From: Candidatus Woesearchaeota archaeon | Lineage (GTDB): Archaea; Nanobdellota; Nanobdellia; Woesearchaeales; JAGLXL01 | Length of the DNA stretch: 64,000 nucleotides | Assembly (NCBI GenBank): GCA_030640025.1 | Contig: DAOWKC010000002.1 | Span: forward strand, 360,119-424,118 | Reading direction: 5' to 3' | In this document: one piece after another, positions 6,454 to 49,900 of the stretch | Layout of the letters: each line of letters starts with the position of its first letter | Position numbering within the stretch: the first letter of the stretch is position 1 | The notes under the pieces: model-generated | Seen by the model: the letters and a program-made list of their open reading frames with translations, nothing else | Told to the model about the DNA's origin: nothing | The model's database searches: none | Program-made: the position numbers and the translations under genes

Positions 6454-9400
6454 TAGATAGTGTGCTGAGCGGACAGAGAAAGGAAATCCATAGCTTGAAA
6501 AATAAAATCAAGAGGGCTGTGGGTGACAAAGAAATTTTAGCTAGACAAGAAGCCTGTATAGAACAGAGTTTTGAAAATGAAAAGATTAGTTTTTTGGAAC
6601 ATAGACAATTGCTCAATCGATGCAGGCAGCTGGATAATTCTTATAATAATCTGATTGCAGGTTGGGAAAAGAAGATTGCGAGAATTGAGAGGGGGCCAGC
6701 CCAAAAAACTTCAATCAAAAATATTTTGCCTGTTTTGATTTTAGGATTGGTGGCCTTTGTTTTGGTTCTGTCATTGCTTGGAGGCCGGGGAGTTTTGACA
6801 GGATTGTTTGTAAGTGAAAATACATTTGTGATTGAGGGTGAATTTAGACTGGATTTGAATGAATTCTTTGAAGTGGGAGAGGGTTGGAGTTATTATACTT
6901 CTGATGCTGAAAACATGGATGTAATTATTTTGAATCAAGAGTTAGTGGTGACTCCTGAAGATGGTTTTGTTGGCGAAAATAAGGTGACGGTTTATGCTTC
7001 TAATGGTTCTGATATGATTGAAGAGGAAATTATTTTGGAAGTGGCAGGAGGATTTGGTGTGGGTCCTGCTCCTGAAGAGGTTGTCGAAGAACCAATCGTC
7101 AATGAAACTGTTGAAGTGGTTGAGAATGTGACAATTGAACCAGTTGAGAATGTTACTGAGCCAATAAATGAAACAACTGAACTAGTTGTTAATGAAACCA
7201 TAGCACCAGAGCCAGAGCCTGAGCCAGTGGTTGAAGAACCTGTTAATGAAACAGTTCCAGAGATTATTCCAGAAGCAGTACCAGAAACAGGTATGACTGT
7301 GGATTCAGAAAACAAACTAAAACTTGACAATAAATTCATTGGCAAGAGAACAGATGACGGAGAAATCGAATTGTACTTTGATTTGATTGAAAAAACTGCT
7401 GACAAATTAATTTTAGAGTTCCATCATAATTCTGACAAAGCAGAGAATGTTTATGTTAGCCGGGGAGTTCTTGATAAACCAGTGCTTCAACCAGGAGAAA
7501 AAGCCAGGTTTGAAATTGATTTAGTTGAGGGTATTGTATCTAAGTTTGTGTTGAAAGCAGGAGTCAAAAAGGGCTTTGCTGTCGAAGCCCAATATTCAGA
7601 AGTATTTGAAATTGGTAAGACGATTCCAGTTGTTTCCAGTAATGGTAATTATACTTTGATTGACAGAGATGATGAAAAATTAAATGTGGAAATTGTGAAG
7701 GACAAAGGCAGGATAGCAATTGTTGGAGTTGTGGATGAGCCAAGGATTAATTCCAAGATTGAATCAGTTGCTAATGCTGATTTAACAACTGAGGTAGCTG
7801 CTGTTGAACCAATGACTATGGAAAGAGCTACCATCACTATTCCAAAAACAGGCAAAGTTGATGTGATTATGGAATGCAGTGAGATGGATGTTGAGAATAT
7901 GGTTTGCTTGGGCGAATGGCAGAAAACAGATATTATATTTACTGATAATGGAGATACAATTACCTTTACTGTTGACCATTTCAGTGGTTATGGCGGAGCT
8001 GAGTTAGAAGTACTTAATCTCCAGAGCTATCCAACTTTAGAAGGGAACTGGACAGTTGAATTTACAACAACTGGCACTGCTGATTTAAGGATAACAGCAG
8101 TGGATGGTACGACTTGGAGCAATATCAATGAAGATAGTGTCCTGAGAGGCGGAGCCTCTGGGACACAAGAGGGTTCCCCTCTTCGTGATTTGAAATTCTT
8201 AGAAGTCAGATGTGGAGATAGTGTTTTGGATTATACTTGGGTAGATAATTCGGTCTTGATTGAAAATTATTATTGCAATGAGACAGGTTATGAAACCAGT
8301 AAGGTTTTGACAACTGGTAAACATACTTTGAAATTTGAATTTGGAGATGATGTTGATTATGCTTATAATTATGTGTACAGTGGTGGTTATGATATGACCA
8401 GTCAAGATAATATAAGTTGGATGGGAGGACAACATGCAGCAACTGGCGGTTATCTTGGGGTGACGCTTGACTGGGCAGATGTCAATGGTGATGGTCATGC
8501 AGATGCGATTGTTGGCAGTTATTACAATAATAGCGGCCTGGGAGCAGTATATCTCCTTTATGGGCCTCTTGAAAGGGTAACAGATGTAGATATTTCATCA
8601 AAAGCCGATGCAGCTTGGTATGGTCCTTCAGTAGATTATGTTGGCACTTGTATTGGAACAGGAGACCTGGACAATGACGGCTATGATGATATTTTAATTG
8701 GGGCTCATGCTTATGATAATGATGCTTTAGATGGAAGAGTTAATGTGATTTACGGGCAAGCAGCAGCCTTTTCAGGAACTACAGACATGGACATAGCAGC
8801 AGATGCAACCTTTACAGGAAATGTAGAAGCTTTGGGCATGGCTTGCGACTGCGCAGACATTAACGGAGATGATTATGAGGATATTTTAATGACCAGTTAT
8901 GGTACAGGCCTTAGCAGCGACGGGATTACTTATTTGGTTTATGGACAAAGCACTAAGTTTTCTGGAGACACAGCTGTCAGTAATGCAAATGCATCATGGA
9001 CCAATGCTGGTTCGTTTGGAGAGGCTTATATTGTAAGAAGAGCCGGTGATATCAATAGTGACGGTTATGATGATTTTCTCATTGGTGAGCCAGCAATCAA
9101 TAATACTTATTTGTATTATGGGCAGGGTGCGAAATTCTCAGGAGCACACACACTCAGCACAAGCGCAAACGCAACCTTTGCAACAGCAACAACCTCAGAT
9201 TCATGCGGTTGGTCTGTTTCTTCAGCTGGTGATTTTAATGCTGATGGTTATGATGATTTCCTGATAGCGGCTCCATCAACTGATGGTCAAGAATTAACAG
9301 ACAATGGTATGGTTTACTTTTTTTATGGAGGCCAGGGATATCCATGGAGCGGAACTATAGCAATGAGTACGACTTACAATGCTTCTTTTCATGGTTATTC

Positions 9401-12400
9401 CAATACATACATGGCAGGAGCGCCGCACGAAACTGGTGCTAATGTTTATATTGGCGGTGCCTTGTCTTACGGAGATTTTAATATTGATGGTTATTCAGAC
9501 TTTTTAATTGGGTCTTATGGAGCTGATGTAGGAGGACATACTGATAATGGAGAAGTGGTTCTTGTTTATGGAAGACCTGCATTTTCCTCTGTAAATGGAT
9601 ATGAATATTCAATGGATATTAGTGCTGGAGAAGTAAATGCGAGCTTTTATGGTGAGGTAAACACAGACAGACTAAGATTTGTGCCAACTGGTATGGCAGA
9701 AGATGTATTTTATGAACACATAATGATGGGGGCTGATGGTTTTGATAATGGCGGAGGGGGTTCTTGTCCGTTCTTGTATGTTTGGGACGGAACAGAATTT
9801 GGTTTCCATGTTGACATATATCCTTCTGGAAGGCTTGGTTCAAAAATAGCAAGCGGAACACTTCCTCCACAGCCAAAAGATTATTACTTAATATCTAAAG
9901 AAAGTTTGACTGCTGCGGATGGAAAATATCAACTCCGCCTTGTTGAAGAAAGGGATGAAGTTGATTACCTTGATCAAACAGAACTCTATGTTGTTGAACA
10001 TACACCAAATACTGAAGTGGTTCCTGAATTAACAGGATTCAATCCAAAATATAAAATGAAGCTTTATTTATTAAATGAGACTATGGTACCTATCTCTTGT
10101 ATAACTGATACTGGCGAGAACTGCACAGATAAGTTGGCTGCTCAGGATTATGATTTTATTGGATTGGGAGACCGGGAATATCTTGACTGGCATTATGTTG
10201 AACTTGACTTTGGAAATATTCCTGGAGATGCTGCTCTTGTCTTTAGGGGCTATAGTGTCTGGCCTCTAACTCCAGAAGGGGTTGCTAGAAGATCATTGTT
10301 TGATAAATATGCATATATTCAGATTTATAATGGCACTGATTGGGTTAATTCTTCCTTGTATCTGCCTAACCCCAAGGAAATAACCCGGGATGCTCCCCTA
10401 AATTTCACAGGTTTGTCTCCAAATGGAAATTATAAAGTCAGGTTGCATTGGGTGCACAACACTTTCTTGGACCAGATCTATATGGGTACAATAAGTGATG
10501 AAGAAATAAGTATCACCAAACTTAATATCACTTTTGCTAACTTGACTCATCATGGAACATCTCACTTCTCAAGCTATCCTCCTCCGCTTAACTCAGATTA
10601 CGAGACTGCTAATGCAATACCCAGCAATTACAAGTATTATGATGGAAATTACACAAGATACGGCGATGTCCTGGAATTATTAAATAAAACAGATGACAAG
10701 TTTGCCATCTTCCATGCAGGCGATGAAATACAGCTGGAATGGGATGCTTATAATCCAACCCAAGATTATGACTTTATGCTGTATTCATATGGGTACTATA
10801 AGGACCGAAAAGCAGCAATTAATACACCCAACATGACTGAAGATGTTGAGCCCTTGCCTTTCCATGATATGAGCAACTTCCCTTACCCTGACAACGAGAG
10901 CTATCCTGATGATGAAGAACATAATAATTATCGCTTAACTTATAACACCAGAGAAAGAATTCATGGAGAAGATGTCACAACTTCATTGCCTCACAGCGAT
11001 GAAGGAAAAGTTTATGTGATGGAAGGAGCGCTGAATCATCCACCAGCTCATGACACGCCAATCTTAAATGCAACAAGTGTTGATAACTTAACCTTAGATG
11101 ATTTGATAGTCTATGTGCAGAATGTCAGTGATGTTGAAAACGATTCTGTGACAAACATTACTGACTGGAGAAAAGACGGAACTTCTATAGCTGTGCTGAA
11201 CATGCCTTTTGATACAAATGATTCTTTAGCTGTAGATGATTATTCTGACTATGTGAATGATGGAACAGTTAATGGAACAACATGGACAAGTTCTGGAATA
11301 TTAGGGGGAGCTTATGAATTTAAACGTACTAATACTGATTACATAGAGATTACTGATGATGCTTCATTAAATCTGACAGGTGATATTACTCTAGAAGCAT
11401 GGATTAAGTCAGATAGTATTGGTGTAGCACAATATATTATATCAAAGCCACTGAATGATGGTATGGGTAATATGCGTTCTTATCCTTATACCCTTTATTT
11501 ATCTCAAGGTAAGATTTGTATGAGAGTTTATATTGATGGTTGGAGCATTTATGCGGCTGGAAGCAATAATACAGTCTGCTCAGACAATAATGTTTCAGAA
11601 GGCACGTGGTCCCATGTTGTGGGAACTTATGATAACAGCACTGGTTTAACATCTATTTACATAAACGGGACAGTGAATAAATCAGCTGTAAGAACTACTC
11701 AGGACGCAGGTTTAACAAAAGCAACACCTGTATTTATTGGTTCTGAAATAAGTACTTTGGGAGTTAAAGGGTGGTCTGCCTTTAACGGTACGATAGATGA
11801 AGTCAGAATTTACAATAGAACTTTGAGTGCAGAACAAGTTGCAGCTAATTATAATAATAGTGATCCTAAGTATGACAAAATTGTTTCAGAGGAAACTGTT
11901 GTTGATGATATATGGCAGGCCTGTATAACACCAAATGACAGAACAGATGATGGGATAACCAAGTGTTCAAATAATTTGACAATTTTAAATACAGCGCCAA
12001 CCCAAGGCAGACCAATTTTAAATTCAACTGACCCCAGTAAAAATAACACTAATCAAAACTTAACTGTTTATAATCAGTCAACTAGTGACGATGATGATCA
12101 TGCAGTCAAGAATATTATTAATTGGTATAAAGATGGGGGTTCGATTACTGAAGTGCATATGCCGTTTGAAGGCGGAGGAAATGCAACTCATGATGAAGAC
12201 GGTTTCACTAAAGATTATTCTGGACATGGAAATAATGGCTCAACAGCAGGTGGCATTACCTGGAGTAAAACAGGGGGATATGACGGCAAAGGAGCTTATG
12301 AGTTTGATGGGATTAATGGTCAGATTACTATTGCTGATGATGCTACCTTAAATGTAGGAGATAAGATAACAGTAATGACCTGGGTTAAAGCTGACACCAT

Positions 12401-15400
12401 GCCTGATGACGGAGGTGCTACTTTTAGGACAATTGCCTCTAGAACAAGAGTATATGATGATGCTAATACAGTTTGGTATTTGGTTTATGCTGAAAACGAC
12501 GGGAAACTTTATTTTGCTGTTGGGAACGGCGCTTCAAGAATACAGTCTTTGAACAGCTTTACAGCTCCGGATTCAAACTGGCAGCATATAGCTGGTGTTT
12601 ACAATGGTTCGCATACGCTGCTTTATATAAACGGCTCTTTGATAAATGTGTCGAGTTCAACAGTCAGCAGCATAAAGAGTACAAATAATAATATTTTAAT
12701 TGGAGAAGATAGTGGCAGGCCTTGGAACGGTACGATTGATGAATTGATAATTTTCAATCGTTCTTTGTCAGCAGAACAAATCAAAGTGTTGTATGAAAAT
12801 AGGACAGATTTAATTGTTTCACAAGAAACTGCTGTTGATGATGTATGGCAGGCATGTATAACACCAAATGACGGAACAGATGACGGGACTGAGAATTGCA
12901 GTAATGATTTGACAGTTATTAATAATATTCCAACCCAAGGCAGACCGATTTTGAATTCGACTGACCCCCACACAAATAGCACTGATCAAAATTTGACTGT
13001 TTATAATCAATCAACTGATGATGCTGATGAGGATGCAGTCAAGAATATCATTAATTGGTATAAAGATAATACTTCATTTACTATGTTGAATATGCCTTTT
13101 GAAGGCGGTTTGCTGGCTGAAGGAGAGACAAAAGTTAAAGATTATTCTCAGTTTGGTAATAATGGAACAGTAACAGAAGCAATTTATCAAGGGTCAGGTG
13201 GTTATGATGGAAAGGGAGCTTATTGGTTTGATGGAAGCAATGATTACATTGACTGCGGAGCTGATAATAGTGTCAATCAGACTGAGGAGATGACGCTGAG
13301 TGCCTGGATAAAATATGATGCAGTGACTGACAATTATGGTGCACTGATGGCTAAGTCAGACGGAGCAGGAATCACTGCTGGATGGAGGCTCCATTGGAAT
13401 AATGCCAATCCTGAATTGAGATTCTTACTAGCTTTGGCCAGTGGAAATAAAGCAATAACCAGTCCAAGTTTAACAGCAAGTACATGGTATCATGTGGCAA
13501 CTACCTTTAATGGTACTGGGATGGCAATTTATGTTAATGGGACATTGGTAAGCAGCACAAGTTTTGCTGCGACAACAATTAAGCCAGCAACCAATGCCTT
13601 AAGGATTGGGGCTGATAATCAGGATTTGAATTTCAAAGGAACGATTGATGAGGCGATGATTTTTAATCATTCGTTAAGTGCTGAACAAATCCAGGTTTTG
13701 TACCAGAACAGGACAGATTTAATTGTTTCCCAAGAAACTTCTATTGAAGATGTTTGGAAAGCCTGTCTGACACCAAATGACGGAACTGTTGACGGAGTTG
13801 AGAATTGCAGTAATGATTTGACTGTTTTGAGAGATTATGCACTTTGTGGAGATACTTTGCAGGCAAACAACCGGTATGTATTGAAGAATGATACTTCAAG
13901 TACAGGAACCTGTTTTACAATCCCTGGCGACAATATTGAAATTGACTGCCGGGGATACAAAATCACTGGACCAGGGGGTACAGGCGTTTCCTATGCAATC
14001 TATTCAGCAGCTGCCAGGACTAATTTAACTCTCAAGAACTGCTGGATTGAGGATTTTAACCGTGGAGTTTATCGTGATTTTGTAAATTCAAAGTTCATTA
14101 ACAACACTTTCAACTACACTCGTACTTGTGGCATTCATCTTAGGTCAGCTAGTAGCTATCTTAATATCAGTGGAAACACTTTTATTGATACAGGAAAAAC
14201 CTCGCCAGCCAACAGCAATGCTGGTTCTTACTCAATCTTTCTTGACAGTGCTGATAACGTTGATATCTATCACAATACTTTCACCCGCGGCCTTGGCTCT
14301 GAAATTTACTTCAATGGCGCCAGCACCAACAGGAATATCAAACATAATTATGTTGACAAAGATAATATCAACAATGAGATCTTTTATTTTTTAACAGTTA
14401 CTGGTTCAGCTACTGTTGAAAACAATACTTTTGTCAATGTTGGAGCTGGTTGGGCTTATTATCTCACAAGTGTTAACACACTCATTACCTTTGTTGGCAC
14501 TAATCTGGTTGATGGGGAAAACGCCAGCAATTATTTTGTTTATAACAGAAATAACACCATCATTGAAAATCTAAATCATAACGGCTCAGAAAGAGTTCTT
14601 AACTGGGGTAATTTTGTTGCTTATAATTGTGATAATCTGACTGTCAGGAACAATAATTTCACCAATCATCATAGCTATTCCAACATGTACCTGCGTAGTG
14701 TAGATAATTCTGACATTTACAATAACAACATCATCAATAGAACCACCGGGGGTACTTACAACTTTCATATCTATCACTGTGATAATTTAAATATTTTCAG
14801 CAATGAAATAAAAGATACCCAAGCTGATGGATTGAAATTAGACACCTGTAGTGGAGCTCAGATATATGATAATAATATTTCAGCTAGTACATCCAGTGGT
14901 AGTTATGCCTTTGATATGTACAGCACCGCTGCTGGTCATGGCCATGCGGTTATTAAAAATAATAATATCTCAGGCGGATCTTACTCAGCATATTTTGCCG
15001 GGACTAGCTCAACTGCCTTGACCAATGTCTCTTTTTTTAATAATTCAATCTCTGGTATGGGGTCCACCGGAATCCATCTTAATGCAGGTATGATTGATGT
15101 TTCTAACAACACCATCACTTGTCCAAATAATCATCAAGGCATCCACCTCGTTAGTGCCACTGGCAACCACACTGTCTTTGGAAATCAAATCAATAATTGT
15201 CGATATGGCCTTGCTCTGCAAAGAGGAGAATCAAGAATCCAGAATAATACTATCACAACCAGAACAGCCACACCAACACAAACTTGGGGAGTTCATGTTC
15301 AAAATGTTGATAACCATCTCTTGAATGTCAATCTTACCAGGGACAACACTGTTGATGGCAAGGCTGTGCCTTATTATTTCAAAGAATCTGCTGCCAGCAT

Positions 15401-18400
15401 CTCTGATCAGAACATTAATTTAACCAAATTAATCAGCACTGGGATAACTTTAATTGGTTCTAATGATATGGTTATTGATAACAATAACATCACTGGCAAT
15501 GATGCAACTATTGGTGGTGCAGGCATAACCTTGTTATATTCTAATTATACCAACATCACCCATAATAATTTCCATGATTTTAACTATGCAATTAACCTAC
15601 CTTACTACCTTGATCAATCAGAAAGAGCTTATATTGCCCATAATTATTTCAATAGCTCGAAGTATGGAATATATTTCTCCGTTAATGTCCAATATAAAGT
15701 TAATTATACCATTTTCAATAATACTTTTTATCAAATAGGTACCAATCCAATTTATAGGTACTGTTCCGCAACTGCACCACACAGAAACAGCCGGATGAAC
15801 ATAACTGGTAACCTGTTTAATTATTCAGCATCACGAGATATGCATTTAGGTAATTGTGTTAATAATACCATAGAAGGCAATAGGTTTGATTATACAGGCA
15901 CTCAAAGTATATACTTTTATAATGCTGACCAGAACACCATCAAAAACAATAATTTCACTAATATTAGAACTGATGGAACAAGCGCTTATTATATATACAT
16001 ACAAAGTGGAAGTAGTAACAATAATATAACTGGCAATCGCTTTACTGGTTCTCCTGGTTATCCTTATTATGGTTTAGGAGTAGATTCGTCTAATAACAAC
16101 CATGTCTCTGGAAATTATTTCAATAACTCTAGATATGCTATTTACTATTTTAACACTGCCAGCGGCAACCCCACTTATAACAATGAGATATATAGTTCTA
16201 CCACAGCCGGTTTCAGAGTTGCCAATGCCAATAACCAGAATATTTACAACAACACAGTTTGTTATAACAAACAAGCTGTTTCATTCACCAATGCAGCTTA
16301 TAATCTCAGCACAGTTGGCTGGCATAACAACTTGATGTGCGTCAATTCCATTATCCCAGAAAACGGCACTACCATCCAGGACACCACCCCGGAAATCTTC
16401 TTCCACATTTCCAACTTGATGGATCAATCTTCAACCAATTGTTCTGCTGTTATCAATGGTGTTGAAAATGGTTATAATGATACTATGGGAGCAGACGGTC
16501 AAAACCAAACTATCCAAGTTTCAAATGCTTTGGCAAGCGGAGAAAACTTCCTCCAAATCAACTGCACTGATGATTATAATGATACTTTGGTATTCCATAA
16601 TATTTCATTCAATGTCCCAATAACATGTAGTGATATTGCTGATGATATTATCATGTTTGCAAATATATCTGCTGATTTGAGAGTTTGCTTTAATATAACA
16701 ACAAATAATATCACAATTGACTGTGATGGTTACACTTTAATCGGCAATGGTTCAGTTGGAATACAAGCAAATGGTTATGACGGATTGACAATTAAGAATT
16801 GTGTGTTTGAGAATTTTACACAAGACATTATTTTTGACAATTCAGATAATGGAACAGTTGAAAATACAGATGTTATTATTAATATTACAAATTCAGAGAA
16901 TGCAGTGGTCAATCTTTCTGATGTTGACTGGCTGTACATCACTAATTCAACAAATGTTCGGGTTGTTGATTCAATTGTGAGAAATTATACTTTTGCTAAT
17001 GCAACTTTCTTTATGATGGAAAACAGCACTTATGGACAGCTTAAGTTCTTAAAGAATGTTTCTGGTATTGGAACCAATCTGTTTGTAAATTCCAGTTCAG
17101 ATATTGTTTGGGAGAGCTTGAGTGTAGGAGTGAATTCAGTTAATCAGCCAGCCTTTAATATTTCAGCAAATGTTTCCTTGTATAATGTACTGCAAATCCT
17201 GCCGCAGCTATATGTTAATATCAGCGGCAACTGGACTTTGTGTAATGAAACAACCAGTCCGTCATGTTATAATTTGAGTTATGCGAACCAAGTTTACATC
17301 TTTAATGTTTCACACTTTACATCATTTATATCAAAGGAATTTGCTGGTTTGATACAGAATTTTAGCTGGCCAGCACATCTGCCAAGAGCAGGCTATGAAG
17401 GAACAATAATATTGATTGACATAGATAAGAATGGAACCAGGGATTTACATATAACCGGCAGTCTTGATACAGTAACTTATTATAATGAAGTTCACCTTAA
17501 TACTGGTGATAATTTTTCTAAGGACACTTCCTTGAGCGGTGATTTGAAAGGAGTGTCTTACAGCGGAGCTGCCTGGGGTGATTATAACAGAGATGGTTAT
17601 TCTGATTTGGTCTATTGCGGTAAGAATGCAACTCATGTTATGACTGAAGCCTTGACAAGTGCAGATGGGAAAGTTTTGAACCGGGATATTCCAAGCATAG
17701 GCAATCTGACTGATGTGGCTTATTGTTCTGTGGTCTTTGGGGATGTGGATGTTGACGGTGATTTGGATTTGGCCCTGCAAGGACAGATTGATCCAACAGC
17801 AGCAGTTTGTGAAGTTTACACTAATAATGATGGAGTCTTTAATTTGAATGTAACTTTATCAAGCAATTGCACTGGAAAATATGATGGTGAATTGAAGTTT
17901 GTTGATGTGAACAATGACAGCTTTGTTGATTTGTTGAGCATAGGTGTTACTTTAGCTGGAACTCCTTTGATTGAGGTTATGATTAATGGCAATGGCAACA
18001 AGTTAGAGCTCAATACATCATATTATAATCTGCTTAATTTAAGCAAAGCAACTTTGAATTATGGAGATATGGACAATGATGGTCTAAGAGATATAATTTA
18101 TCATGGAACAGAGGCAGGAGGGGGAAGTTCACGAACAGTTTGGTATAAGAATACTGGTTCGGGTTTTACTGAGGTAGGTAATCATGACATGAAGAATTTA
18201 ACCCAAGGAGCAATTTGTATTGTTGATTTTAATAATGACGGCTGGAGAGATGTTTATATGTCTGGAAATGAATTGGCATCAGGGAATTATCATGCAGATG
18301 TTTATTTGAATAATGGAGATGGAAGCGGGTTGTTTAAAAGTTATCAATACAGTATTAATTTATCGGCAGGGTTTAGAAGTGCTTGTGCTACGGCTGATGT

Positions 18401-19319
18401 TGAGAATGCGTCACATGCTGATTTAGTAGCAACTTGGGGCAGTGGAGGACCTGATAATTTTGTGGGTGGATGGAATGGTAATCCTGATACTTGGGTTGTG
18501 CCGGATAATGCCAGGCCGACTGCAGTAGGACCGCCAAATGTTGAGGCTAATGATATGGGTGGAGGAATGATGGAGATAACGATGGATTCAGGAGATGGTG
18601 ATGATGACGTGCCGCCGAGGGATGAGGACAATGGAGATGTGGTTGGTTATGATGCAAAAGACATTGTATCTGGAGATATATTAATTTCAAATGAACCAGG
18701 ACAAGTAGCATCGCCTGGTTCTTATGACATGACCTACCCAGCTAAAGCAAGCACTGCTATACTAAGAACAAGTATCACCAATGTGGTTGATGTTAGTTGG
18801 TGGGATTTGGACGAAGGTTATGAACTAAGTGATATATCAGATACTACAACAGTTTGGATAGCTGATGTGTTTGAGGTAGTGGGCAGTCTGGCTGCAATAA
18901 TTGTTGGAGATGATTGTTATCTTTCAACAGATAATACCACACTAGGATCTCATACTATCCCTTGTTCTAATCTTGGTAACTGGTCGACATTAAATCTGTC
19001 AATCACGCCAAGGACACCTTATAATTTAACTGTTCATTGTACAAAGAATATAACTGCAGAGTTTGGTGATGGAACTGAGAATAATAATTATATTGGGAAA
19101 GTCCAGAATACATCTTACACAGGTAACAGAACAATTATTGCTGATGCCTGGGTTTTAGCAAATTATAATGCTTCTTCCTTGTATCCGATTATGTTAGTCC
19201 AGAATGGCACTTTTACTGGCACTAACCATAATTATACTATTGAAGTTGGCAAGGAATTAGATGTTTTAACACCCGTTGGAAATTATAATAATACCATTGT
19301 CTTTACAGTTTGGGTATAA
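6450..19319 (+). CDS. giant surface protein (4289 aa). Contents: signal anchor, NET/PEP-rich stalk, two FG-GAP beta-propeller blocks, 3x LamG/ConA-like, long right-handed beta-helix.
   Basis: TM at aa 93-115. FG-GAP repeats (DVNGDGHADAIVGS, DLDNDGYDDILIGA, etc.) at about nt 8400-9560 and 17400-18300. LamG_3-like modules (LTLEAWIK...GTIDEVRIYNRTLSAEQV) repeated three times between nt 11090 and 13850. PbH1-like NNxI repeats at about nt 13860-16900. Hundreds of N-x-S/T sequons. Confidence 0.9.
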   Translation: MIDSVLSGQRKEIHSLKNKIKRAVGDKEILARQEACIEQSFENEKISFLEHRQLLNRCRQLDNSYNNLIAGWEKKIARIERGPAQKTSIKNILPVLILGLVAFVLVLSLLGGRGVLTGLFVSENTFVIEGEFRLDLNEFFEVGEGWSYYTSDAENMDVIILNQELVVTPEDGFVGENKVTVYASNGSDMIEEEIILEVAGGFGVGPAPEEVVEEPIVNETVEVVENVTIEPVENVTEPINETTELVVNETIAPEPEPEPVVEEPVNETVPEIIPEAVPETGMTVDSENKLKLDNKFIGKRTDDGEIELYFDLIEKTADKLILEFHHNSDKAENVYVSRGVLDKPVLQPGEKARFEIDLVEGIVSKFVLKAGVKKGFAVEAQYSEVFEIGKTIPVVSSNGNYTLIDRDDEKLNVEIVKDKGRIAIVGVVDEPRINSKIESVANADLTTEVAAVEPMTMERATITIPKTGKVDVIMECSEMDVENMVCLGEWQKTDIIFTDNGDTITFTVDHFSGYGGAELEVLNLQSYPTLEGNWTVEFTTTGTADLRITAVDGTTWSNINEDSVLRGGASGTQEGSPLRDLKFLEVRCGDSVLDYTWVDNSVLIENYYCNETGYETSKVLTTGKHTLKFEFGDDVDYAYNYVYSGGYDMTSQDNISWMGGQHAATGGYLGVTLDWADVNGDGHADAIVGSYYNNSGLGAVYLLYGPLERVTDVDISSKADAAWYGPSVDYVGTCIGTGDLDNDGYDDILIGAHAYDNDALDGRVNVIYGQAAAFSGTTDMDIAADATFTGNVEALGMACDCADINGDDYEDILMTSYGTGLSSDGITYLVYGQSTKFSGDTAVSNANASWTNAGSFGEAYIVRRAGDINSDGYDDFLIGEPAINNTYLYYGQGAKFSGAHTLSTSANATFATATTSDSCGWSVSSAGDFNADGYDDFLIAAPSTDGQELTDNGMVYFFYGGQGYPWSGTIAMSTTYNASFHGYSNTYMAGAPHETGANVYIGGALSYGDFNIDGYSDFLIGSYGADVGGHTDNGEVVLVYGRPAFSSVNGYEYSMDISAGEVNASFYGEVNTDRLRFVPTGMAEDVFYEHIMMGADGFDNGGGGSCPFLYVWDGTEFGFHVDIYPSGRLGSKIASGTLPPQPKDYYLISKESLTAADGKYQLRLVEERDEVDYLDQTELYVVEHTPNTEVVPELTGFNPKYKMKLYLLNETMVPISCITDTGENCTDKLAAQDYDFIGLGDREYLDWHYVELDFGNIPGDAALVFRGYSVWPLTPEGVARRSLFDKYAYIQIYNGTDWVNSSLYLPNPKEITRDAPLNFTGLSPNGNYKVRLHWVHNTFLDQIYMGTISDEEISITKLNITFANLTHHGTSHFSSYPPPLNSDYETANAIPSNYKYYDGNYTRYGDVLELLNKTDDKFAIFHAGDEIQLEWDAYNPTQDYDFMLYSYGYYKDRKAAINTPNMTEDVEPLPFHDMSNFPYPDNESYPDDEEHNNYRLTYNTRERIHGEDVTTSLPHSDEGKVYVMEGALNHPPAHDTPILNATSVDNLTLDDLIVYVQNVSDVENDSVTNITDWRKDGTSIAVLNMPFDTNDSLAVDDYSDYVNDGTVNGTTWTSSGILGGAYEFKRTNTDYIEITDDASLNLTGDITLEAWIKSDSIGVAQYIISKPLNDGMGNMRSYPYTLYLSQGKICMRVYIDGWSIYAAGSNNTVCSDNNVSEGTWSHVVGTYDNSTGLTSIYINGTVNKSAVRTTQDAGLTKATPVFIGSEISTLGVKGWSAFNGTIDEVRIYNRTLSAEQVAANYNNSDPKYDKIVSEETVVDDIWQACITPNDRTDDGITKCSNNLTILNTAPTQGRPILNSTDPSKNNTNQNLTVYNQSTSDDDDHAVKNIINWYKDGGSITEVHMPFEGGGNATHDEDGFTKDYSGHGNNGSTAGGITWSKTGGYDGKGAYEFDGINGQITIADDATLNVGDKITVMTWVKADTMPDDGGATFRTIASRTRVYDDANTVWYLVYAENDGKLYFAVGNGASRIQSLNSFTAPDSNWQHIAGVYNGSHTLLYINGSLINVSSSTVSSIKSTNNNILIGEDSGRPWNGTIDELIIFNRSLSAEQIKVLYENRTDLIVSQETAVDDVWQACITPNDGTDDGTENCSNDLTVINNIPTQGRPILNSTDPHTNSTDQNLTVYNQSTDDADEDAVKNIINWYKDNTSFTMLNMPFEGGLLAEGETKVKDYSQFGNNGTVTEAIYQGSGGYDGKGAYWFDGSNDYIDCGADNSVNQTEEMTLSAWIKYDAVTDNYGALMAKSDGAGITAGWRLHWNNANPELRFLLALASGNKAITSPSLTASTWYHVATTFNGTGMAIYVNGTLVSSTSFAATTIKPATNALRIGADNQDLNFKGTIDEAMIFNHSLSAEQIQVLYQNRTDLIVSQETSIEDVWKACLTPNDGTVDGVENCSNDLTVLRDYALCGDTLQANNRYVLKNDTSSTGTCFTIPGDNIEIDCRGYKITGPGGTGVSYAIYSAAARTNLTLKNCWIEDFNRGVYRDFVNSKFINNTFNYTRTCGIHLRSASSYLNISGNTFIDTGKTSPANSNAGSYSIFLDSADNVDIYHNTFTRGLGSEIYFNGASTNRNIKHNYVDKDNINNEIFYFLTVTGSATVENNTFVNVGAGWAYYLTSVNTLITFVGTNLVDGENASNYFVYNRNNTIIENLNHNGSERVLNWGNFVAYNCDNLTVRNNNFTNHHSYSNMYLRSVDNSDIYNNNIINRTTGGTYNFHIYHCDNLNIFSNEIKDTQADGLKLDTCSGAQIYDNNISASTSSGSYAFDMYSTAAGHGHAVIKNNNISGGSYSAYFAGTSSTALTNVSFFNNSISGMGSTGIHLNAGMIDVSNNTITCPNNHQGIHLVSATGNHTVFGNQINNCRYGLALQRGESRIQNNTITTRTATPTQTWGVHVQNVDNHLLNVNLTRDNTVDGKAVPYYFKESAASISDQNINLTKLISTGITLIGSNDMVIDNNNITGNDATIGGAGITLLYSNYTNITHNNFHDFNYAINLPYYLDQSERAYIAHNYFNSSKYGIYFSVNVQYKVNYTIFNNTFYQIGTNPIYRYCSATAPHRNSRMNITGNLFNYSASRDMHLGNCVNNTIEGNRFDYTGTQSIYFYNADQNTIKNNNFTNIRTDGTSAYYIYIQSGSSNNNITGNRFTGSPGYPYYGLGVDSSNNNHVSGNYFNNSRYAIYYFNTASGNPTYNNEIYSSTTAGFRVANANNQNIYNNTVCYNKQAVSFTNAAYNLSTVGWHNNLMCVNSIIPENGTTIQDTTPEIFFHISNLMDQSSTNCSAVINGVENGYNDTMGADGQNQTIQVSNALASGENFLQINCTDDYNDTLVFHNISFNVPITCSDIADDIIMFANISADLRVCFNITTNNITIDCDGYTLIGNGSVGIQANGYDGLTIKNCVFENFTQDIIFDNSDNGTVENTDVIINITNSENAVVNLSDVDWLYITNSTNVRVVDSIVRNYTFANATFFMMENSTYGQLKFLKNVSGIGTNLFVNSSSDIVWESLSVGVNSVNQPAFNISANVSLYNVLQILPQLYVNISGNWTLCNETTSPSCYNLSYANQVYIFNVSHFTSFISKEFAGLIQNFSWPAHLPRAGYEGTIILIDIDKNGTRDLHITGSLDTVTYYNEVHLNTGDNFSKDTSLSGDLKGVSYSGAAWGDYNRDGYSDLVYCGKNATHVMTEALTSADGKVLNRDIPSIGNLTDVAYCSVVFGDVDVDGDLDLALQGQIDPTAAVCEVYTNNDGVFNLNVTLSSNCTGKYDGELKFVDVNNDSFVDLLSIGVTLAGTPLIEVMINGNGNKLELNTSYYNLLNLSKATLNYGDMDNDGLRDIIYHGTEAGGGSSRTVWYKNTGSGFTEVGNHDMKNLTQGAICIVDFNNDGWRDVYMSGNELASGNYHADVYLNNGDGSGLFKSYQYSINLSAGFRSACATADVENASHADLVATWGSGGPDNFVGGWNGNPDTWVVPDNARPTAVGPPNVEANDMGGGMMEITMDSGDGDDDVPPRDEDNGDVVGYDAKDIVSGDILISNEPGQVASPGSYDMTYPAKASTAILRTSITNVVDVSWWDLDEGYELSDISDTTTVWIADVFEVVGSLAAIIVGDDCYLSTDNTTLGSHTIPCSNLGNWSTLNLSITPRTPYNLTVHCTKNITAEFGDGTENNNYIGKVQNTSYTGNRTIIADAWVLANYNASSLYPIMLVQNGTFTGTNHNYTIEVGKELDVLTPVGNYNNTIVFTVWV
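11090..13850 (+). repeat. intragenic tandem repeats (about 930-bp period, 3 copies, roughly 85% nt identity in cores) encoding LamG/ConA-like modules of the giant protein
   Basis: Near-identical stretches around 11860-12130, 12790-13080 and 13690-13850. Antisense shadow ORFs 11849..12049 and 12623..12982 are mutually similar. Confidence 0.8.
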
Positions 19320-45443: not shown

Positions 45444-45543
45444 TTATTTCTTGATTATTGAATAAGGAATTAATTTATATTCTACATAATAGAAACATTT
45501 AAATATCAGTAAAGATATTATACAAGATATCAAAAGAGATATT

Positions 45544-45831
45544 GTGATAGATATGTTTAATATTGAATATCAAGGATTAAGAATAGAACCAACCTTACAT
45601 GCAACACGAGAATTGATTAAGGAAGGAAAAGATCTTTATGATGTTCTTAAAATATTATTAGAAGGTTATGATTGCGGTGCTTCAAAAAGAAAAGAAAATA
45701 TTATTGAAAGATGCCTGAGAAAAGGCGATAAAGAATTTAAAGCTGTCATTGCCAAAACAGAGTTGAGTTATCCGGATGGTTTTCAAGAGAGTGTTTGGCG
45801 ATTAATTCATTTTGGTAAAACTACTATATAA
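45544..45831 (+). CDS. possible DUF4258-like toxin
   Basis: IEPTLHATRELIKEG motif. Precedes a Zn-ribbon/AbrB gene in the same order as the 40141/39924 pair. Confidence 0.35.
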   Translation: MIDMFNIEYQGLRIEPTLHATRELIKEGKDLYDVLKILLEGYDCGASKRKENIIERCLRKGDKEFKAVIAKTELSYPDGFQESVWRLIHFGKTTI

Positions 45832-45873: not shown

Positions 45874-46215
45874 ATGGCAAAAGAAAAGATTAGAAAAGAT
45901 ACTTGGCAAGCTAGACATACTTGTACCCATTGTGAAATTCCGATGGAGAAAAAGAAAATAATAATTGAAGGAATAGAAATAAGGGGTTGGGAATGTTCGA
46001 AATGTAAAGAAACTGTTTTACATTCAGAAGATGCACAAAAAATGTTGTTTTTAAATAAATTGAAAAGGGGTATTAAAGTTAAAATTGGAGAATTAGGCCA
46101 ATCGTTGATTATTAGATTCCCAAAGGAAGTAGTGGATTTTTACAAAATTAAAAAAGGAGAAGACCTTACTTTAAGAGCAGAAGATATGAAAAGAATAGAA
46201 TTAGTTCCGGCATAA
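45874..46215 (+). CDS. YgiT-type zinc-ribbon plus AbrB-like domain protein (paralog of 39583..39924)
   Basis: CTHCEI...CSKCKE. C-terminal GQSLIIRFPKEVVDFYKIKKGEDLTL. Confidence 0.55.
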   Translation: MAKEKIRKDTWQARHTCTHCEIPMEKKKIIIEGIEIRGWECSKCKETVLHSEDAQKMLFLNKLKRGIKVKIGELGQSLIIRFPKEVVDFYKIKKGEDLTLRAEDMKRIELVPA

Positions 46216-46218
46216 ATT

Positions 46219-47313
46219 TTATTTCGTAATTATTTCTTTTTTAATTTTAATTCCGCGTTTGTCTATTTGATATAAGTAAGCTTCGCGAGGAACGTACTTT
46301 TCCTGTTCAAGAACACCCCTTTGAGTGATAGCACCAGAAGCAATCATTTGGGCAATGATGGAGACAGACCAGGCAGTGGTTTCAGCTGTGGCAGTGGTAT
46401 TAGTTTTGTCATTGTATTCATGGGCTATGGTGTAAGTAATTTCTGTTTTTTGACCGTCTTTTATTCCGCCGACAACAACTTTGACCAGGACAACATCTTT
46501 TTGGTTCTTAGGCAAAGTTTCTTTGAGATAATCTTCTAATTCGCTTTTGTCTGGAAAACGCTGGATTAATTTTTTTATTTCCTGGTAATGGCCAGGATAT
46601 CTCAAGGTTTTTTCAAACCATTCTTGGACTTGGCCTTCAAAAGTTCTGGTTAAGGTTGAACTCATGCCGGCAACATAATCAGCTTCCATTTCTCCAAATC
46701 CTGGAAAATTTATTTTTTCAAGACCAGAAAGGGCTTTGACGTGCTGGACTTTGCCGTCTTTGATGAGAGTAGAATATTTAGTGTATTCAGAAACTAAAAC
46801 TGCAAGAGAGAAAAGTTGAGTGTAATTTAAAGGTGGATTGGTGGGGTTTAAGGGAATAGCACCGACATAGTTGTGGATGTAATGTGTTATGTCTAACTGG
46901 CTGTCTCCATGACCATCTAAGATGTTGACTGTGCCAGGACAGATTCCGTTATCAGGCATGGCGATAATGCCAGCGTCTTTGGCTTTTTGATGAAGGGCAA
47001 GTTGTTTTTTTAAAGTATCTGGGTCAGCGCCTAAATCTGTATAGTTGCATTTGGCATCAATAGCTGCTTCAAGTCCAAGAAGATGATATTCAGGACGTGC
47101 AACAGCAGAAATTATGCCATCATAACCTCGCATTAATTTGACCAGATTGGCATGATCTCTGACATCAATTGGTTCAAATCCAATTCCTAATTTTTGGGCT
47201 GTAAGACGTTTTGCCGGGTCATAATCAGCAGCAGTAACTGCGCCATATTTCTTTAAATCTCTGGCAATCTCTTCGCCCATGAGACCAAGCCCTAAAAGTA
47301 AAAAACTATGCAT
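46219..47313 (-). CDS. saccharopine dehydrogenase family NAD(P)-dependent oxidoreductase
   Basis: N-terminal Rossmann LLGLGLMGEEIA and Sacchrp_dh-like core. Confidence 0.65.
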   Translation of the reverse strand: MHSFLLLGLGLMGEEIARDLKKYGAVTAADYDPAKRLTAQKLGIGFEPIDVRDHANLVKLMRGYDGIISAVARPEYHLLGLEAAIDAKCNYTDLGADPDTLKKQLALHQKAKDAGIIAMPDNGICPGTVNILDGHGDSQLDITHYIHNYVGAIPLNPTNPPLNYTQLFSLAVLVSEYTKYSTLIKDGKVQHVKALSGLEKINFPGFGEMEADYVAGMSSTLTRTFEGQVQEWFEKTLRYPGHYQEIKKLIQRFPDKSELEDYLKETLPKNQKDVVLVKVVVGGIKDGQKTEITYTIAHEYNDKTNTTATAETTAWSVSIIAQMIASGAITQRGVLEQEKYVPREAYLYQIDKRGIKIKKEIITK

Positions 47314-47473
47314 TTTCTAGAATTTTTTAACAGAACTGGTATTTAACTTTTGTGTATATAGACTATCTATTTTGAATTTTGAAGTAAGGTTGAGTATTAG
47401 TTGAGTTTAATTTGTGTTAAATTCTTTGCCGGTTACGAGCGAAGTGGAGTTCTGGCAAACTTAGTCCTAAGAG

Positions 47474-47490
47474 TTCAAAAATAGGCACTT
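47474..47490. repeat. left arm of a perfect 17-bp inverted repeat (TTCAAAAATAGGCACTT)
   Basis: Reverse complement found at 47841..47857. The arms bracket ORF 47519..47833. Confidence 0.75.
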
Positions 47491-47518
47491 TTAAATAATT
47501 TCTAATATTAATTATTAT

Positions 47519-47833
47519 ATGAAAATAAAAATTAGATATAATCATTGGCTACCTAGATTATTAAAAATAAATGGAATAACCCTTTACCCTTATATTTGCA
47601 TAAAATATTCTGAATCAATATCTTTTAAAAAAAGAATTATTCATCATGAATGGATACATATTATTCAAGTAAGGAAAGATGGTTTCTTTAGATTTTATTT
47701 TAAATGGCTAATTGAGCTACTGATAAATTTTCTTAAGTATAAAAATTATAATAAAGCATATAAAAACATTTCATATGAAGCTGAAGCTTACAAAAAGATG
47801 TTTAAAATAAAAATACCGAAAAAATTAGAGTAA
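47519..47833 (+). CDS. small HExxH protein (DUF4157-like HEWIHIIQ motif), flanked by a 17-bp inverted repeat
   Basis: IIHHEWIHIIQ fits the HE[LW]xH[VI]xQ signature of DUF4157 metallopeptidase-like domains. Confidence 0.45.
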   Translation: MKIKIRYNHWLPRLLKINGITLYPYICIKYSESISFKKRIIHHEWIHIIQVRKDGFFRFYFKWLIELLINFLKYKNYNKAYKNISYEAEAYKKMFKIKIPKKLE

Positions 47834-47840
47834 TTTAACT

Positions 47841-47857
47841 AAGTGCCTATTTTTGAA
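47841..47857. repeat. right arm of the 17-bp inverted repeat, directly abutting a TTGAGTTTAAT direct repeat
   Basis: AAGTGCCTATTTTTGAA. Confidence 0.75.
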
Positions 47858-48047
47858 TTGAGTTTAATTGCTGTTATATTCGTTTTTGCGAACAGAGCTG
47901 GAGCGACCGTATGGGAGCGACCTCGTGAGCAAAAACCAAAACAATTTAAATTCGAAGATGTGAGCGAAGCGAACACCTGAGAATATTAAATTTTTTGAGT
48001 CGCGGAGGGACACACAGTCCAATTAAGCTCGAAGAGCACTAAAGGAC

Positions 48048-49762
48048 AAGAAGTTAAGGGGACACACTCAACACAATATTAAGAATCGGGGGCTTTATAG
48101 AATTATTTATATATTGGTTAAATTATTTATTATCTAATGGACCTAAATAGATTGATTAAGAGGATTGAAAAATATATCGGTAGAAATTTGAAGCTTTCTA
48201 TGAAAGAATTTAAACAATTACAAAAATTAAAAGAAAATGTTATACTAATAGAAGAACTTTTATCCCATCATAACTTAGGTAATTTACGTTATAAAGAACA
48301 TACAAAAAAATTGATAATATGTGTCGGAAGAATTGAAAGAAGGCTCAATGTTTGGATTATAAGATTAGAAAAACTACTTACTAAAGAAGAATATGAATTA
48401 TCCCCTAGAGACAGACAATATTTTGAATTATTTAAAAATAAATTAGATATTTGTAAAAACAACCTGATTAGAATTCTAGCTTGGAACGGAGAGTTACATC
48501 AAATCCTAAAAAAAAAAGGATTTCCGGAGTGGGACAAAATTATGGAGAAAGTTGATGAGGCATTTGGTAATAACAAGAATCCTGGGATAAATACATTAAT
48601 CATTTTATTTGAACAATTAGGGAAAGTAGAGGAACAATTACTCAAAAGAGTTAGTAAAGAAGACTGGTTGAAGATTATCAATGAAAAAATCGAAACAAAT
48701 GGAAATATTCTAGATAGAACAGATCTAAGTTTGAGAGTAGATTCATCAAGTTATTTGTCTGCCTTCTTTAGAATGCTAAGATTTCAAAAACATCGGGAAT
48801 GCCTAGTAAAATTTAATGTTAAGGAAAGAATAACATCTAAAGGAGTAAAAGCAAAGAATTGGCAAAGAGAATTATCAATAGCTATAGATGCAGGAGGATT
48901 TCAGGCACAATTTAGTGGTAGAGTTAATAATTTATATAAATCTTTTTTAAAAAGAAATAAAGGTAATAGGACCACAGCCTTAATTGGAATAGGCAGATTG
49001 ATAGGTGTAGCCTATGTAGCACTGAATGAATCCACATTTGAATACGTTAGAAGAGATTTAGCAAAATTAGAAGAAGGTCTTCAAAGTAGTGAATCTTCTC
49101 GTATCTCTTTTTCTGTTCAATATCTATCCTCACGATATGGTGGTCTTGTAGAATTCAAAAAATTCGCTAATAAAAAGGATTTTTCAGAAGAAGAAAAACA
49201 AGAACTTTCAAATATGGCAAAATCTTATAAATATATAATCGAAAATTTCGGATTTGATGTTGGAGGATATAGAAGAATAGTGCAAAATGAACAAGGATTA
49301 GTTTTTTCTGGGAGGGAATATAGGACAATAAAGAGGATTGTTGATGACCCAAAATCAATTTTAAGAAATCCAAAAGAAGTTTTATTAGTTTTATCCCAAG
49401 GTTTAGCTAGATATGATGCTTTCCACAGATTTAATTATGATATAGCAGTAATTATTAACAATAAGTATATATTCGGAGTGACCTATCAAGGTCCTTCAAA
49501 AGGGCACTGGGGTGATATTGATGATACAAATACACCAGATAAATTCAAAGAGGCGTATTTAGGAATTATTTGTTTAATTCATAATAATGCTTTTTATAGA
49601 AAAGTCATTAAGGAAATGCTAGCAGCAACAGTGGATAAACCAGAGTTAAGATTACCAATTTATAATGTCTTTGGAAAGGTTATATGGCCTTCGTAAAAGT
49701 GTAATTTTAGTCTAGCCCCCGATTCTATTAATTAAAACATAAAGTGCGAAGCACATTCTTGA
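48048..49762. mobile_element. candidate cassette bounded by composite inverted repeats, carrying only ORF 48137..49696
   Basis: Outer IR is GGGGACACACTCA (48048-48060) / TGAGTGTGTCCCC (49750-49762). Inner IR is AGAATCGGGGGC (48072-48083) / GCCCCCGATTCT (49705-49716). Extra GGGACACAC copies at 48007-48015 and, inverted, at 49794-49802. Confidence 0.45.
48137..49696 (+). CDS. hypothetical 519-aa protein carried inside an inverted-repeat-bounded cassette
   Basis: No recognisable catalytic motif. N-terminal GRIERR motif is shared with the 50989 protein. Confidence 0.5.
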   Translation: MDLNRLIKRIEKYIGRNLKLSMKEFKQLQKLKENVILIEELLSHHNLGNLRYKEHTKKLIICVGRIERRLNVWIIRLEKLLTKEEYELSPRDRQYFELFKNKLDICKNNLIRILAWNGELHQILKKKGFPEWDKIMEKVDEAFGNNKNPGINTLIILFEQLGKVEEQLLKRVSKEDWLKIINEKIETNGNILDRTDLSLRVDSSSYLSAFFRMLRFQKHRECLVKFNVKERITSKGVKAKNWQRELSIAIDAGGFQAQFSGRVNNLYKSFLKRNKGNRTTALIGIGRLIGVAYVALNESTFEYVRRDLAKLEEGLQSSESSRISFSVQYLSSRYGGLVEFKKFANKKDFSEEEKQELSNMAKSYKYIIENFGFDVGGYRRIVQNEQGLVFSGREYRTIKRIVDDPKSILRNPKEVLLVLSQGLARYDAFHRFNYDIAVIINNKYIFGVTYQGPSKGHWGDIDDTNTPDKFKEAYLGIICLIHNNAFYRKVIKEMLAATVDKPELRLPIYNVFGKVIWPS

Positions 49763-49829
49763 GTGTGTCCCCCTCTTATTTTTTTCTCTAAAAGTGTGTC
49801 CCGGAGCGATTGAGTTTAATGTCCTATAA

Positions 49830-49868
49830 CTCAAGTTCGCAGAATTTGAGGGTTATAGGTCTTTAAAC
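49830..49868 (-). terminator. hairpin CCTATAACTCAA...TTGAGGGTTATAGG just 3' of pgk
   Basis: Near-perfect 12-bp stem. Confidence 0.35.
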
Positions 49869-49900
49869 TCAGGAATTTTGATTACCATAAATGGATATTT

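Follow-up and report, generated by a model that had tools for sequence, protein, structure and literature searches.

DUF4157, the Pfam family PF13699 that is now named eCIS_core, comprises about 80 residues encompassing an HEXXH motif and also occurs as a T6SS effector domain (PMC6899460). As the eCIS core domain it lies N-terminally in eCIS toxins or adjacent to them (PMC8213781). The solved representative of this family, whose members are frequently annotated as DUF4157, is the C-terminal effector of VgrG2b (PDB 6H56), a thermolysin-like gluzincin with the zinc ligands H935, H939 and E983. Toxicity is lost in its mutants E936A, H935A and H939A. Stand-alone HExxH domains of small size reportedly exist in archaea; the minigluzincins proabylysin and projannalysin, described by Lopez-Pelegrin et al. 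in 2013, are said to be soluble archaeal proteins of ~105-110 aa. In minigluzincins, a structure of which (PDB 4JIU) is cited in PMC4559962, the third zinc ligand is a histidine (PMC6925264). The family that will be of main concern here, PHROG 15610, is catalogued as 'protease', a name that is an annotation only, and a literature search found no paper mentioning it. Regarding genes that are bracketed by repeats, mobile insertion cassettes and MITE-like units are passengers bounded by terminal inverted repeats (TIRs) without a recombinase of their own. The mobile elements of DPANN archaea are poorly known. Integrons have been found in archaea, and integron cassettes are known in Nanoarchaeota (PMC9668308).

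The window, i.e. the whole stretch of 64,000 nucleotides analysed here, contains a small open reading frame (ORF104) that is flanked by an inverted repeat (IR) and by a direct repeat. The features are as follows.

47519..47833, + strand: ORF104, a program-listed ORF with ATG start and 104 codons (104 aa)
47645..47668, + strand: codons of HEWIHIIQ (H43-E44-W-I-H47-I-I-Q50, HExxHxxQ), residues 43-50
47777..47791, + strand: codons of E87-A-E89-A90-Y91 (ExEAY), conserved in the family and part of model helix 85-93
47474..47490, no strand: left IR arm TTCAAAAATAGGCACTT, perfect over 17 nt, directly upstream of the TATA-like box
47841..47857, no strand: right IR arm AAGTGCCTATTTTTGAA, perfect reverse complement of the left arm
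47490..47498, + strand: TATA-like box TTTAAATAA, located 21-29 nt before the ATG
47401..47427, + strand: left copy of a 27-nt direct repeat, starting with TTGAGTTTAATT, 23/27 identical
47858..47884, + strand: right copy of this 27-nt repeat, immediately next to the right IR arm

The translation of ORF104 contains ...KKRIIHHEWIHIIQVRKDG... and ...FKKRIIHHEWIHIIQVRKDGFF..., and its direct reading places HEWIHIIQ at residues 43-50, so that the sequence-only reading was correct in describing a 104-aa ORF with this motif at 47519-47833(+). The archaeal host that had been claimed is likewise confirmed. A protein identical to ORF104 is deposited at NCBI (MCK4589601.1, 'Nanoarchaeota archaeon'), a homolog with 88% protein identity is encoded by Candidatus Woesearchaeota archaeon B3_Woes, and the window also encodes Ribosomal_S13_N and ELP3_N domains of the archaeal/eukaryal type. 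Thus, the host of the window is an archaeon. DNA identical to the window is present on a 583-kb metagenomic scaffold. With a GC content of 21.3%, ORF104 ranks lowest among 20 genes of the window, the overall GC content of which is 35.3%. Compared to the 90% identical copy of B3_Woes, 15 codon changes are synonymous and 13 non-synonymous, a substitution pattern indicating that the gene is under purifying selection. Together with the 2699 family representatives detected at E<=1e-3 (see below), this pattern identifies ORF104 as a genuine gene. HExxH is a short motif and many ORFs arise in low-GC DNA, which might suggest a chance open frame in AT-rich DNA with a chance HExxH. The probability of this explanation is virtually nil since it is already refuted by the thousands of homologs, in which H..H is invariant and the distal ExEA conserved, by the confident structure model of ORF104 and by the substitution pattern.

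The predicted protein is very basic (23 K+R versus 7 D+E). Neither a transmembrane or hydrophobic segment (maximum 19-residue Kyte-Doolittle mean 0.88) nor a signal peptide-like sequence at the N-terminus was detected. No match to Pfam and NCBIfam models was obtained even at E<=10, and PDB sequences yielded only noise. Two kinds of PDB sequence matches were rejected. The 'Bacteroides T6SS Adapter Protein C' (9jg8_A, E=0.034) lacks HExxH (DTENVFLQ in its place) and was aligned via the aromatic-rich FxxFYFK, hence spuriously; matches to C2H2 zinc fingers represent noise of the H...H pattern.

A word-indexed search gave five relatives of ORF104, whose alignment seeded an exhaustive HMM search. 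With a limit of E<=1e-3 the latter retrieved 2699 cluster representatives, and with E<=1e-10 still 797. Nearly all of the best 150 matches have 87-153 aa and align end to end, hence the stand-alone format of ~100 aa is the family norm. ORF104 itself matched PHROG 15610 'protease' with E=4.5e-11 and 43.8 bits, its residues 18-93 aligning to positions 15-86 of the 105 in the profile. This profile was also matched by 127/127 sampled relatives (best 3.3e-37). Proteins of this family typically consist of a single domain of about 100-120 aa, so that the stand-alone minimal protein noticed in the sequence has the layout that is usual throughout the family. The sole long architecture among the best 150 matches is P0129 (418 aa), in which the zincin domain (318-401) stands at the C-terminus of a bile-acid:sodium symporter (SBF), either fused or mis-called.

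Conservation was determined with an alignment (A2) of 127 members mapped on ORF104. H43, H47 and A90 are invariant (1.00). Values of 0.96-0.99 were obtained for E44 (0.99), Q50 (0.98), F59, position 63, Y81 and E87 (0.99), with E44, Q50, Y81 and E87 each at least 98% conserved; position 63 is Tyr in the family and Trp in ORF104. P24, A80, Y60, I84, E89 (0.87), G55 and Y91 (0.81) follow with 0.81-0.94. The resulting family signature is ITLYPFI ... HExIHxxQ ... FY..Y ... AYxxIxxExEAY. A third conserved histidine is lacking. The claimed HExxHxxQ match of IIHHEWIHIIQ is therefore real in the sense that the motif is present and that H43, E44, H47 and Q50 are conserved.

Members of the family were found on 15 IMG/VR contigs, and a viral member used as query detected 105 GenBank phage records, annotated as 'hypothetical protein' or 'protease'. 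The carriers include Riemerella, crAss-like, Phocaeicola and Bacteroides, Maribacter and huge phages. Cellular carriers, which were identified by a pattern-limited scan, belong to Nanoarchaeota/Woesearchaeota, SR1 (CPR), Bdellovibrionota and many Bacteroidota. The family is thus common in Bacteroidota and their phages and extends to CPR bacteria, Bdellovibrionota and DPANN archaea, and ORF104 is the archaeal (DPANN) branch of an already catalogued family. Phage members such as RAP44 gp05 (YP_007003603.1), CrAssphage cr56_1 gp74 and Bacteroides phage BS-TP1 gp117 have the same size and single-domain layout, and phage and Bacteroidota members share ITLYPF...HExIHxxQ...AYxNIxFExEAY with ORF104, but are only ~35-45% identical to it. 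A tblastn search with the archaeal protein alone did not reach any GenBank phage, and a search of IMG/VR for viruses that might carry the archaeal subclade as vectors revealed neither near-identical DNA nor a close protein relative.

The phage genes are situated in a lysis cassette, after the portal gene or near an integrase, whereas ORF104 is a lone chromosomal module. In Riemerella phage RAP44 (NC_019490.1, 2295-2627), the gene is located directly upstream of holin and endolysin (order protease-holin-x-endolysin). The crAss-like phage CrAssphage cr56_1 harbors it at 85408-85716, directly after terminase and portal, a slot that we take to be the position of a head-maturation protease, and in Bacteroides phage BS-TP1 a family gene lies near an integrase. 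The neighborhoods of 45 cellular and viral loci have no gene in common throughout, synteny being confined to lineages. In Chitinophagales and Saprospirales, for instance, a response regulator of the LuxR type lies downstream. This analysis of the 45 loci did not reveal a functional partner, and PADLOC did not link ORF104 to a defense system.

How close is this family to DUF4157? ORF104 did not match PF13699 in the Pfam comparison, even at E<=10, and thus stayed below the gathering threshold of 22 bits. Among the 127 relatives, 33 matched PF13699 at E<=0.1 (runner-up SprT-like, 4), and a single one (P0025, 26.3 bits) attained the gathering score. Since residues 15-54 of P0025 map to profile positions 35-77 of 79, it is the strand and HELQHVRQ (profile positions ~67-74) that align to the HExxHxxQ end of PF13699, and the family leaves the N-terminal half of the Pfam model uncovered. 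HEWIHIIQ at residues 43-50 of ORF104 resembles the HExxH(xxQ) that PF13699 carries at the C-terminal end of its domain of ~80 residues. The H-to-E spacing is 44 in ORF104 (H43-E87) and 48 in VgrG2b (H935-E983), with the Glu at the top of its helix in both proteins. Foldseek did not find anything in the PDB with the ORF104 model, while the BFVD matches with a probability of 1.00 include an 81-aa 'DUF4157 domain-containing protein' of an uncultured phage (32% identity, TM 0.69 (target)). These three lines, the Pfam matches of the relatives, the comparison with VgrG2b and the phage match in BFVD, link the PHROG 15610 family to PF13699 as a distant sister. The DUF4157-like identity proposed from the sequence therefore holds as a distant link, given the weak PF13699 matches of 33/127 relatives, but the protein belongs to a family of its own.

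Structure prediction yielded a confident model of ORF104, in which HEWIHIIQ is part of a helix (40-54), a 'glutamate helix' (85-93) starts with E87, and a three-stranded beta-sheet (residues 4-28) precedes the active-site helix. The model thus combines the features of clan MA(E) zincins/gluzincins, an HExxH helix, a Glu in a downstream helix and an N-terminal mixed beta-sheet. According to the model, the fold class of ORF104 is that of a gluzincin-type zincin; the zincin fold suspected from the motif is compatible with the positions of the HExxH and E87 helices. One Zn2+ would be held by His43 and His47 and by Glu87, and Glu44 would act as general base activating the zinc-bound water. The backbone of the substrate may dock as an additional strand on the edge strand 25-28 (conserved ITLYPxI) of the sheet. 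Q50, F59, Y60, W/Y63, A80, Y81 and A90 would constitute the second shell and the specificity pocket, the latter possibly lined by the aromatic cluster F59, Y60, W/Y63 and Y81 together with A80/A90. ORF104 most likely acts on some peptide or protein target in the cytoplasm, as suggested by the missing signal peptide and membrane segment and by its strong basicity. As the median net charge of the family is only +4, we ascribe most of the basicity to the AT bias and Lys richness of the host and not to nucleic-acid binding.

The best explanation, to which we assign a probability of about 70%, is that ORF104, by its appearance an expressed gene, encodes a minimal, stand-alone, gluzincin-type zinc metallopeptidase, presumably zinc-binding, catalytically active and cytoplasmic, on a relocated or exchanged unit bracketed by IRs. 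Two other assignments of the protein have to be weighed against it. It is conceivable that ORF104 is a bona fide DUF4157/eCIS_core protein, i.e. a toxin-associated domain that belongs to a polymorphic toxin or contractile injection system and functions in loading, in maturation or as effector. However, besides the failure of ORF104 in the Pfam model, the lone gathering-score match of its relatives and the restriction of the alignment to PF13699 positions 35-77, the members are single-domain proteins and not N-terminal modules of long toxins. Moreover, neither the 38 ORFs scanned in the window nor the genes beside homologs in five other contexts contained sheath, tube, baseplate, VgrG, PAAR or toxin domains; specifically, the surroundings of the homologs at L001, L038, L184 and L186 lacked injection-system and toxin domains. 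The domain scan covered 38 ORFs, four ORFs >800 aa and small ORFs lying outside it. The ten ORFs around ORF104 encode L-PSP, SET, a MazE-like antitoxin, GAPDH, RsmB and five products without Pfam match, the flanking genes are saccharopine-dehydrogenase-like (Sacchrp_dh) and PGK, and the further 28 ORFs contain only housekeeping-type domains. Contrary to PF13699 proteins, ORF104 is thus neither fused nor adjacent to toxins, VgrG, PAAR or eCIS genes, it has no immunity gene and, contrary to VgrG2b, which acts in the periplasm of the prey, no export signal. This assignment is therefore very improbable, and the toxin/eCIS association mentioned in the sequence-only reading applies to DUF4157 (PMC8213781, PMC6899460) but not to the context of ORF104. 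The extreme basicity might, on the other hand, suggest a SprT/Wss1/ArdC-like (minigluzincin-type) protease that is associated with DNA and involved in DNA-protein crosslinks or anti-restriction. Minigluzincins resemble ORF104 in being archaeal and ~105 aa long, and they set a precedent for a complete peptidase of such a size. However, they use a third His, which is not conserved in the family of ORF104, whereas Glu87 is 99% conserved, so that the family does not belong to them. The best SprT-like score among the relatives was 14.6 bits, far below the cutoff of 25.6 bits, and the low median charge speaks against an association with DNA. A protease of this type is improbable, if less so than a true eCIS_core domain. 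In essence, the description of ORF104 as a DUF4157-like minimal zincin, stand-alone, IR-bracketed and archaeal, is supported.

The bounded cassette that had been claimed is confirmed in so far as the perfect 17-nt pair (47474-47490 / 47841-47857) flanks ORF104. The distance from the left arm to the ATG is 28 nt, while the right arm begins 7 nt after the stop codon and holds a T5 run, possibly an archaeal terminator signal. Perfect 17-mer inverted pairs at a distance of 50-1000 nt appeared in 3/200 first-order Markov simulations of the window. In the 130-nt flanks of 62 non-overlapping genes of the window, a perfect IR >9 nt exists only at ORF104 (17 nt) and at its neighbor (14 nt). It is thus unlikely that the 17-nt IR arose by chance. 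The 27-nt direct repeat has a local score of 34, compared to a maximum of 23 in shuffled sequences (0/500 shuffles reached 34). The TATA-like box, the stretch of which is kept in every >97% copy whatever the context, implies by its distance of 21-29 nt from the ATG that ORF104 may possess its own promoter and a leaderless or near-leaderless mRNA. A motif of ~22 nt, ATAGxAxxATTTATATATTGGT, occurs upstream of three genes (5555-5576, 45489-45510 and 48097-48118) and probably contains the TATA/BRE promoter consensus of the lineage.

Pairing of the IR arms in RNA was considered and is unlikely: transcription presumably starts downstream of the left arm, and two arm differences in L038 are non-compensatory. 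A flanking IR as a feature of the whole family was also rejected: 11/12 other homolog loci are devoid of a perfect flanking IR >10 nt, and the twelfth, L038, whose arms correspond to those of the window except for two mismatches, escaped the perfect-match scan (>=9 nt). Metagenome contigs scanned for the 17-mer gave 120 single-copy chance matches, none with both arms or the gene. Rfam did not reveal any RNA family in the whole window, nor in 47300-48200 at E<=1, and a tRNA as possible integration target is not present.

The module of promoter, gene and terminator (357-410 bp) occurs with 97-98% nucleotide identity in at least four neighborhoods and with 90% in a fifth. The contexts and the units derived from them are:

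Context A, window: left Sacchrp_dh, right 519-aa gene; reference
Context B, L038/L039: left radical SAM, right Methyltransf_15; 97-98% nucleotide identity to the window
Context B', L184/L185: left 144-aa gene, right Methyltransf_15; 97-98% nucleotide identity to the window
Context D, L186: left CrtO, right 109-aa gene; 97-98% nucleotide identity to the window
Context C, B3_Woes (L001): left 116-aa gene, right TrmB; 90% nucleotide identity to the window
47487..47843, + strand: minimal module, ACTTTTAAATAA...ORF...TAATTTAACTAAG, common to all >97% copies (window, L006, L038-L040, L184-L186)
47458..47870 (approx.), + strand: larger unit, ~98% identical to context B (L038/L039), with both arms and outer sequence

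The minimal module consists of the TATA-like box, the ORF and 10 nt, and its ends are the inner 3-4 nt of both IR arms (ACTT / AAGT). Between contexts A and B, the homology extends beyond the arms by ~16 nt on the left and ~10-13 nt on the right (TTGAGTTTAA); within context B, the left and right arms mismatch at two positions without compensation. Context B' has kept the right arm only, context D GCACTT / AAG and context C part of the right arm. Two contigs from different samples, L006 and L040, which were assembled independently, start at one base (ACTTTTAAATAA, ACTT, window 47487). This position is the inner edge of the left arm and the point at which contexts B and B' diverge, which fits population heterogeneity at the junction. 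In every context, the module starts 3-30 nt after the stop codon of the upstream gene. The best non-self matches of the flanking genes amount to 77% for radical SAM and 60% for Sacchrp_dh. An empty-site search did not recover a clean empty site, since the closest radical-SAM ortholog locus, L180 (77%), keeps the upstream synteny but differs in the downstream genes.

On the basis of the 97-98% identity across neighborhoods and the lowest GC content, the module is probably mobile. The lack of close orthologs in the flanks, the GC content of 21.3% and the flanking 27-nt direct repeat argue for a foreign origin and a recent relocation or exchange. ORF104 would travel as a self-sufficient unit of ~0.36-0.41 kb composed of TATA box, ORF, T-rich stop region and 17-bp IR, and this unit may have been recently relocated or horizontally exchanged in its archaeal lineage; mobility as the mechanism is what we infer from these data. 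Of the features of a TIR element, the IR and at least five contexts were seen, while the homology of A and B runs past the arms by 10-16 nt and the breakpoints of other copies are inside the arms. A classical target-site duplication is not evident; a possible 7-8-nt direct repeat (ATTGAGT) in L038 is, like the 27-nt repeat of the window, not placed as such a duplication. Integrase and transposase domains (including Phage_integrase) are absent from the 38 scanned ORFs. Mobile insertion cassettes and MITE-like units are similar to the module with regard to the promoter-bearing single gene, the flanking IRs and the several contexts. By contrast, the homology of the module overruns the outer ends of the IR and there is no defined target-site duplication. 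Integron cassettes are comparable in that a second unit adjoins in the same orientation. They differ by attC at the 3' end, whereas the arms of ORF104 lie on both sides of the gene and no R''/R' hairpin follows the ORF; the window contains no repeated attC-like palindrome family, and IntI is missing in the 38 scanned ORFs.

Alternatively, the arms could be sequences associated with promoter and terminator, and the different contexts the outcome of ordinary rearrangements in compact, fast-evolving DPANN genomes without any mobile cassette. The breakpoints would then pile up at the TATA box and the stop codon because only rearrangements sparing both survive. This matches the position of the left arm at the TATA-like box and of the T5 run just past the stop, the short distance to the upstream gene in every context, the loss or truncation of the arms in B', C and D while the gene persists, the non-compensatory arm differences of L038 and the missing recombinase. 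What speaks against it is that a perfect 17-mer, unique among the 62 genes except for the neighbor, far exceeds the need of a terminator, that the copies are 97-98% identical while orthologs of the flanking genes are no closer than 60-77%, that the GC content is strongly atypical, and that the adjacent gene is also bracketed by IRs, with TTGAGTTTAAT at all three unit boundaries. We give this explanation slightly less than even odds, and rate a mobile unit and rearrangement about equal. A more far-reaching idea is that DPANN archaea (Woesearchaeota) possess an undescribed gene-cassette system mobilised in trans, in which ORF104 and the 519-aa orphan next to it represent two cargo units and the minimal metallopeptidase is a widely traded accessory gene. 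Each unit would have its own promoter and be delimited by IRs, and recombination would take place at or inside the arms (ACTT / AAGT), with TTGAGTTTAAT as a recurrent junction motif. Such a system would be neither an integron (no attC, IntI) nor a classical IS/MITE. We regard this idea as rather unlikely; if it is true, the metallopeptidase would be a 'moron'-like gene traded among phages, CPR bacteria and DPANN archaea.

The gene adjoining the ORF104 unit is an orphan, for which no Pfam, PHROG or PDB-sequence match was found. It is surrounded by a long imperfect composite IR.

48137..49696, + strand: 519-aa orphan gene
47923..48105, no strand: upstream arm region of the composite IR with the cores GGGGACACACTCAA (48058-48071) and AGAATCGGGGGCT (48083-48095)
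49702..49874, no strand: downstream arm region with AGCCCCCGATTCT (49714-49726) and TTGAGTGTGTCCCC (49759-49772)

The perfect cores of 14 and 13 nt are arranged in mirrored order, GGGGACACACTCAA at 48058 pairing with 49759 and AGAATCGGGGGCT at 48083 with 49714. An alignment of the upstream spacer with the reverse complement of the downstream spacer scored 57, compared to 29.9+-4.9 (maximum 45) for shuffled sequences. The 519-aa gene may be either an unrecognised transposable element or another unit delimited by IRs. The two IR-bracketed units have three boundaries, and TTGAGTTTAAT is located at each of them (47401, 47858 and 49810), its count alone being not significant (4 observed versus 2.5 expected at <=1 mismatch). 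A 61-nt hairpin (49811-49871) starts in the third TTGAGTTTAAT, with arms (49811-49830 / 49852-49871) that are 90% complementary. The non-coding spacer 47858-48100 (~300 nt) has a GC content of 36.6%, above that of ORF104, and contains GGAGCGACC and GGGACACAC twice each. It folds moderately better than shuffled sequences (z -2.45 on the + strand and -1.67 on the - strand) and did not match any Rfam family.

With ORF104, a very large and uncharacterised family of HExxH...E proteins with ~100 residues gains a DPANN archaeal branch. Its members abound in Bacteroidota as well as in phages, crAss-like ones included, and are connected to DUF4157/eCIS_core, a domain no less enigmatic. ORF104, a small domain with a confident model, provides a convenient handle on what zincins of the DUF4157 type cleave. 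As a protein ORF104 is ordinary; the more unusual feature is the repeat-bracketed module present in several contexts. A single-gene unit with IRs and promoter in unrelated neighborhoods hints at a route of gene shuffling in the reduced genomes of DPANN archaea.

Two further loci of the window deserve mention. A pair of small genes at 45544-45831 (95 aa, no match) and 45874-46215 (113 aa) is possibly a toxin-antitoxin pair; the 113-aa product begins with a zinc-ribbon-like segment (CxxC...CxxC) and matched MazE/AbrB-type antitoxins weakly (E=8e-4, below the cutoff). A giant ORF of 4289 aa at 6450-19319 comprises internal direct repeats of ~930 nt with ~80% identity (11879/12812 and 12726/13635) as well as recurring Asp-rich units resembling GDxxxDGYDD, which suggests that it may encode a huge repetitive surface protein.
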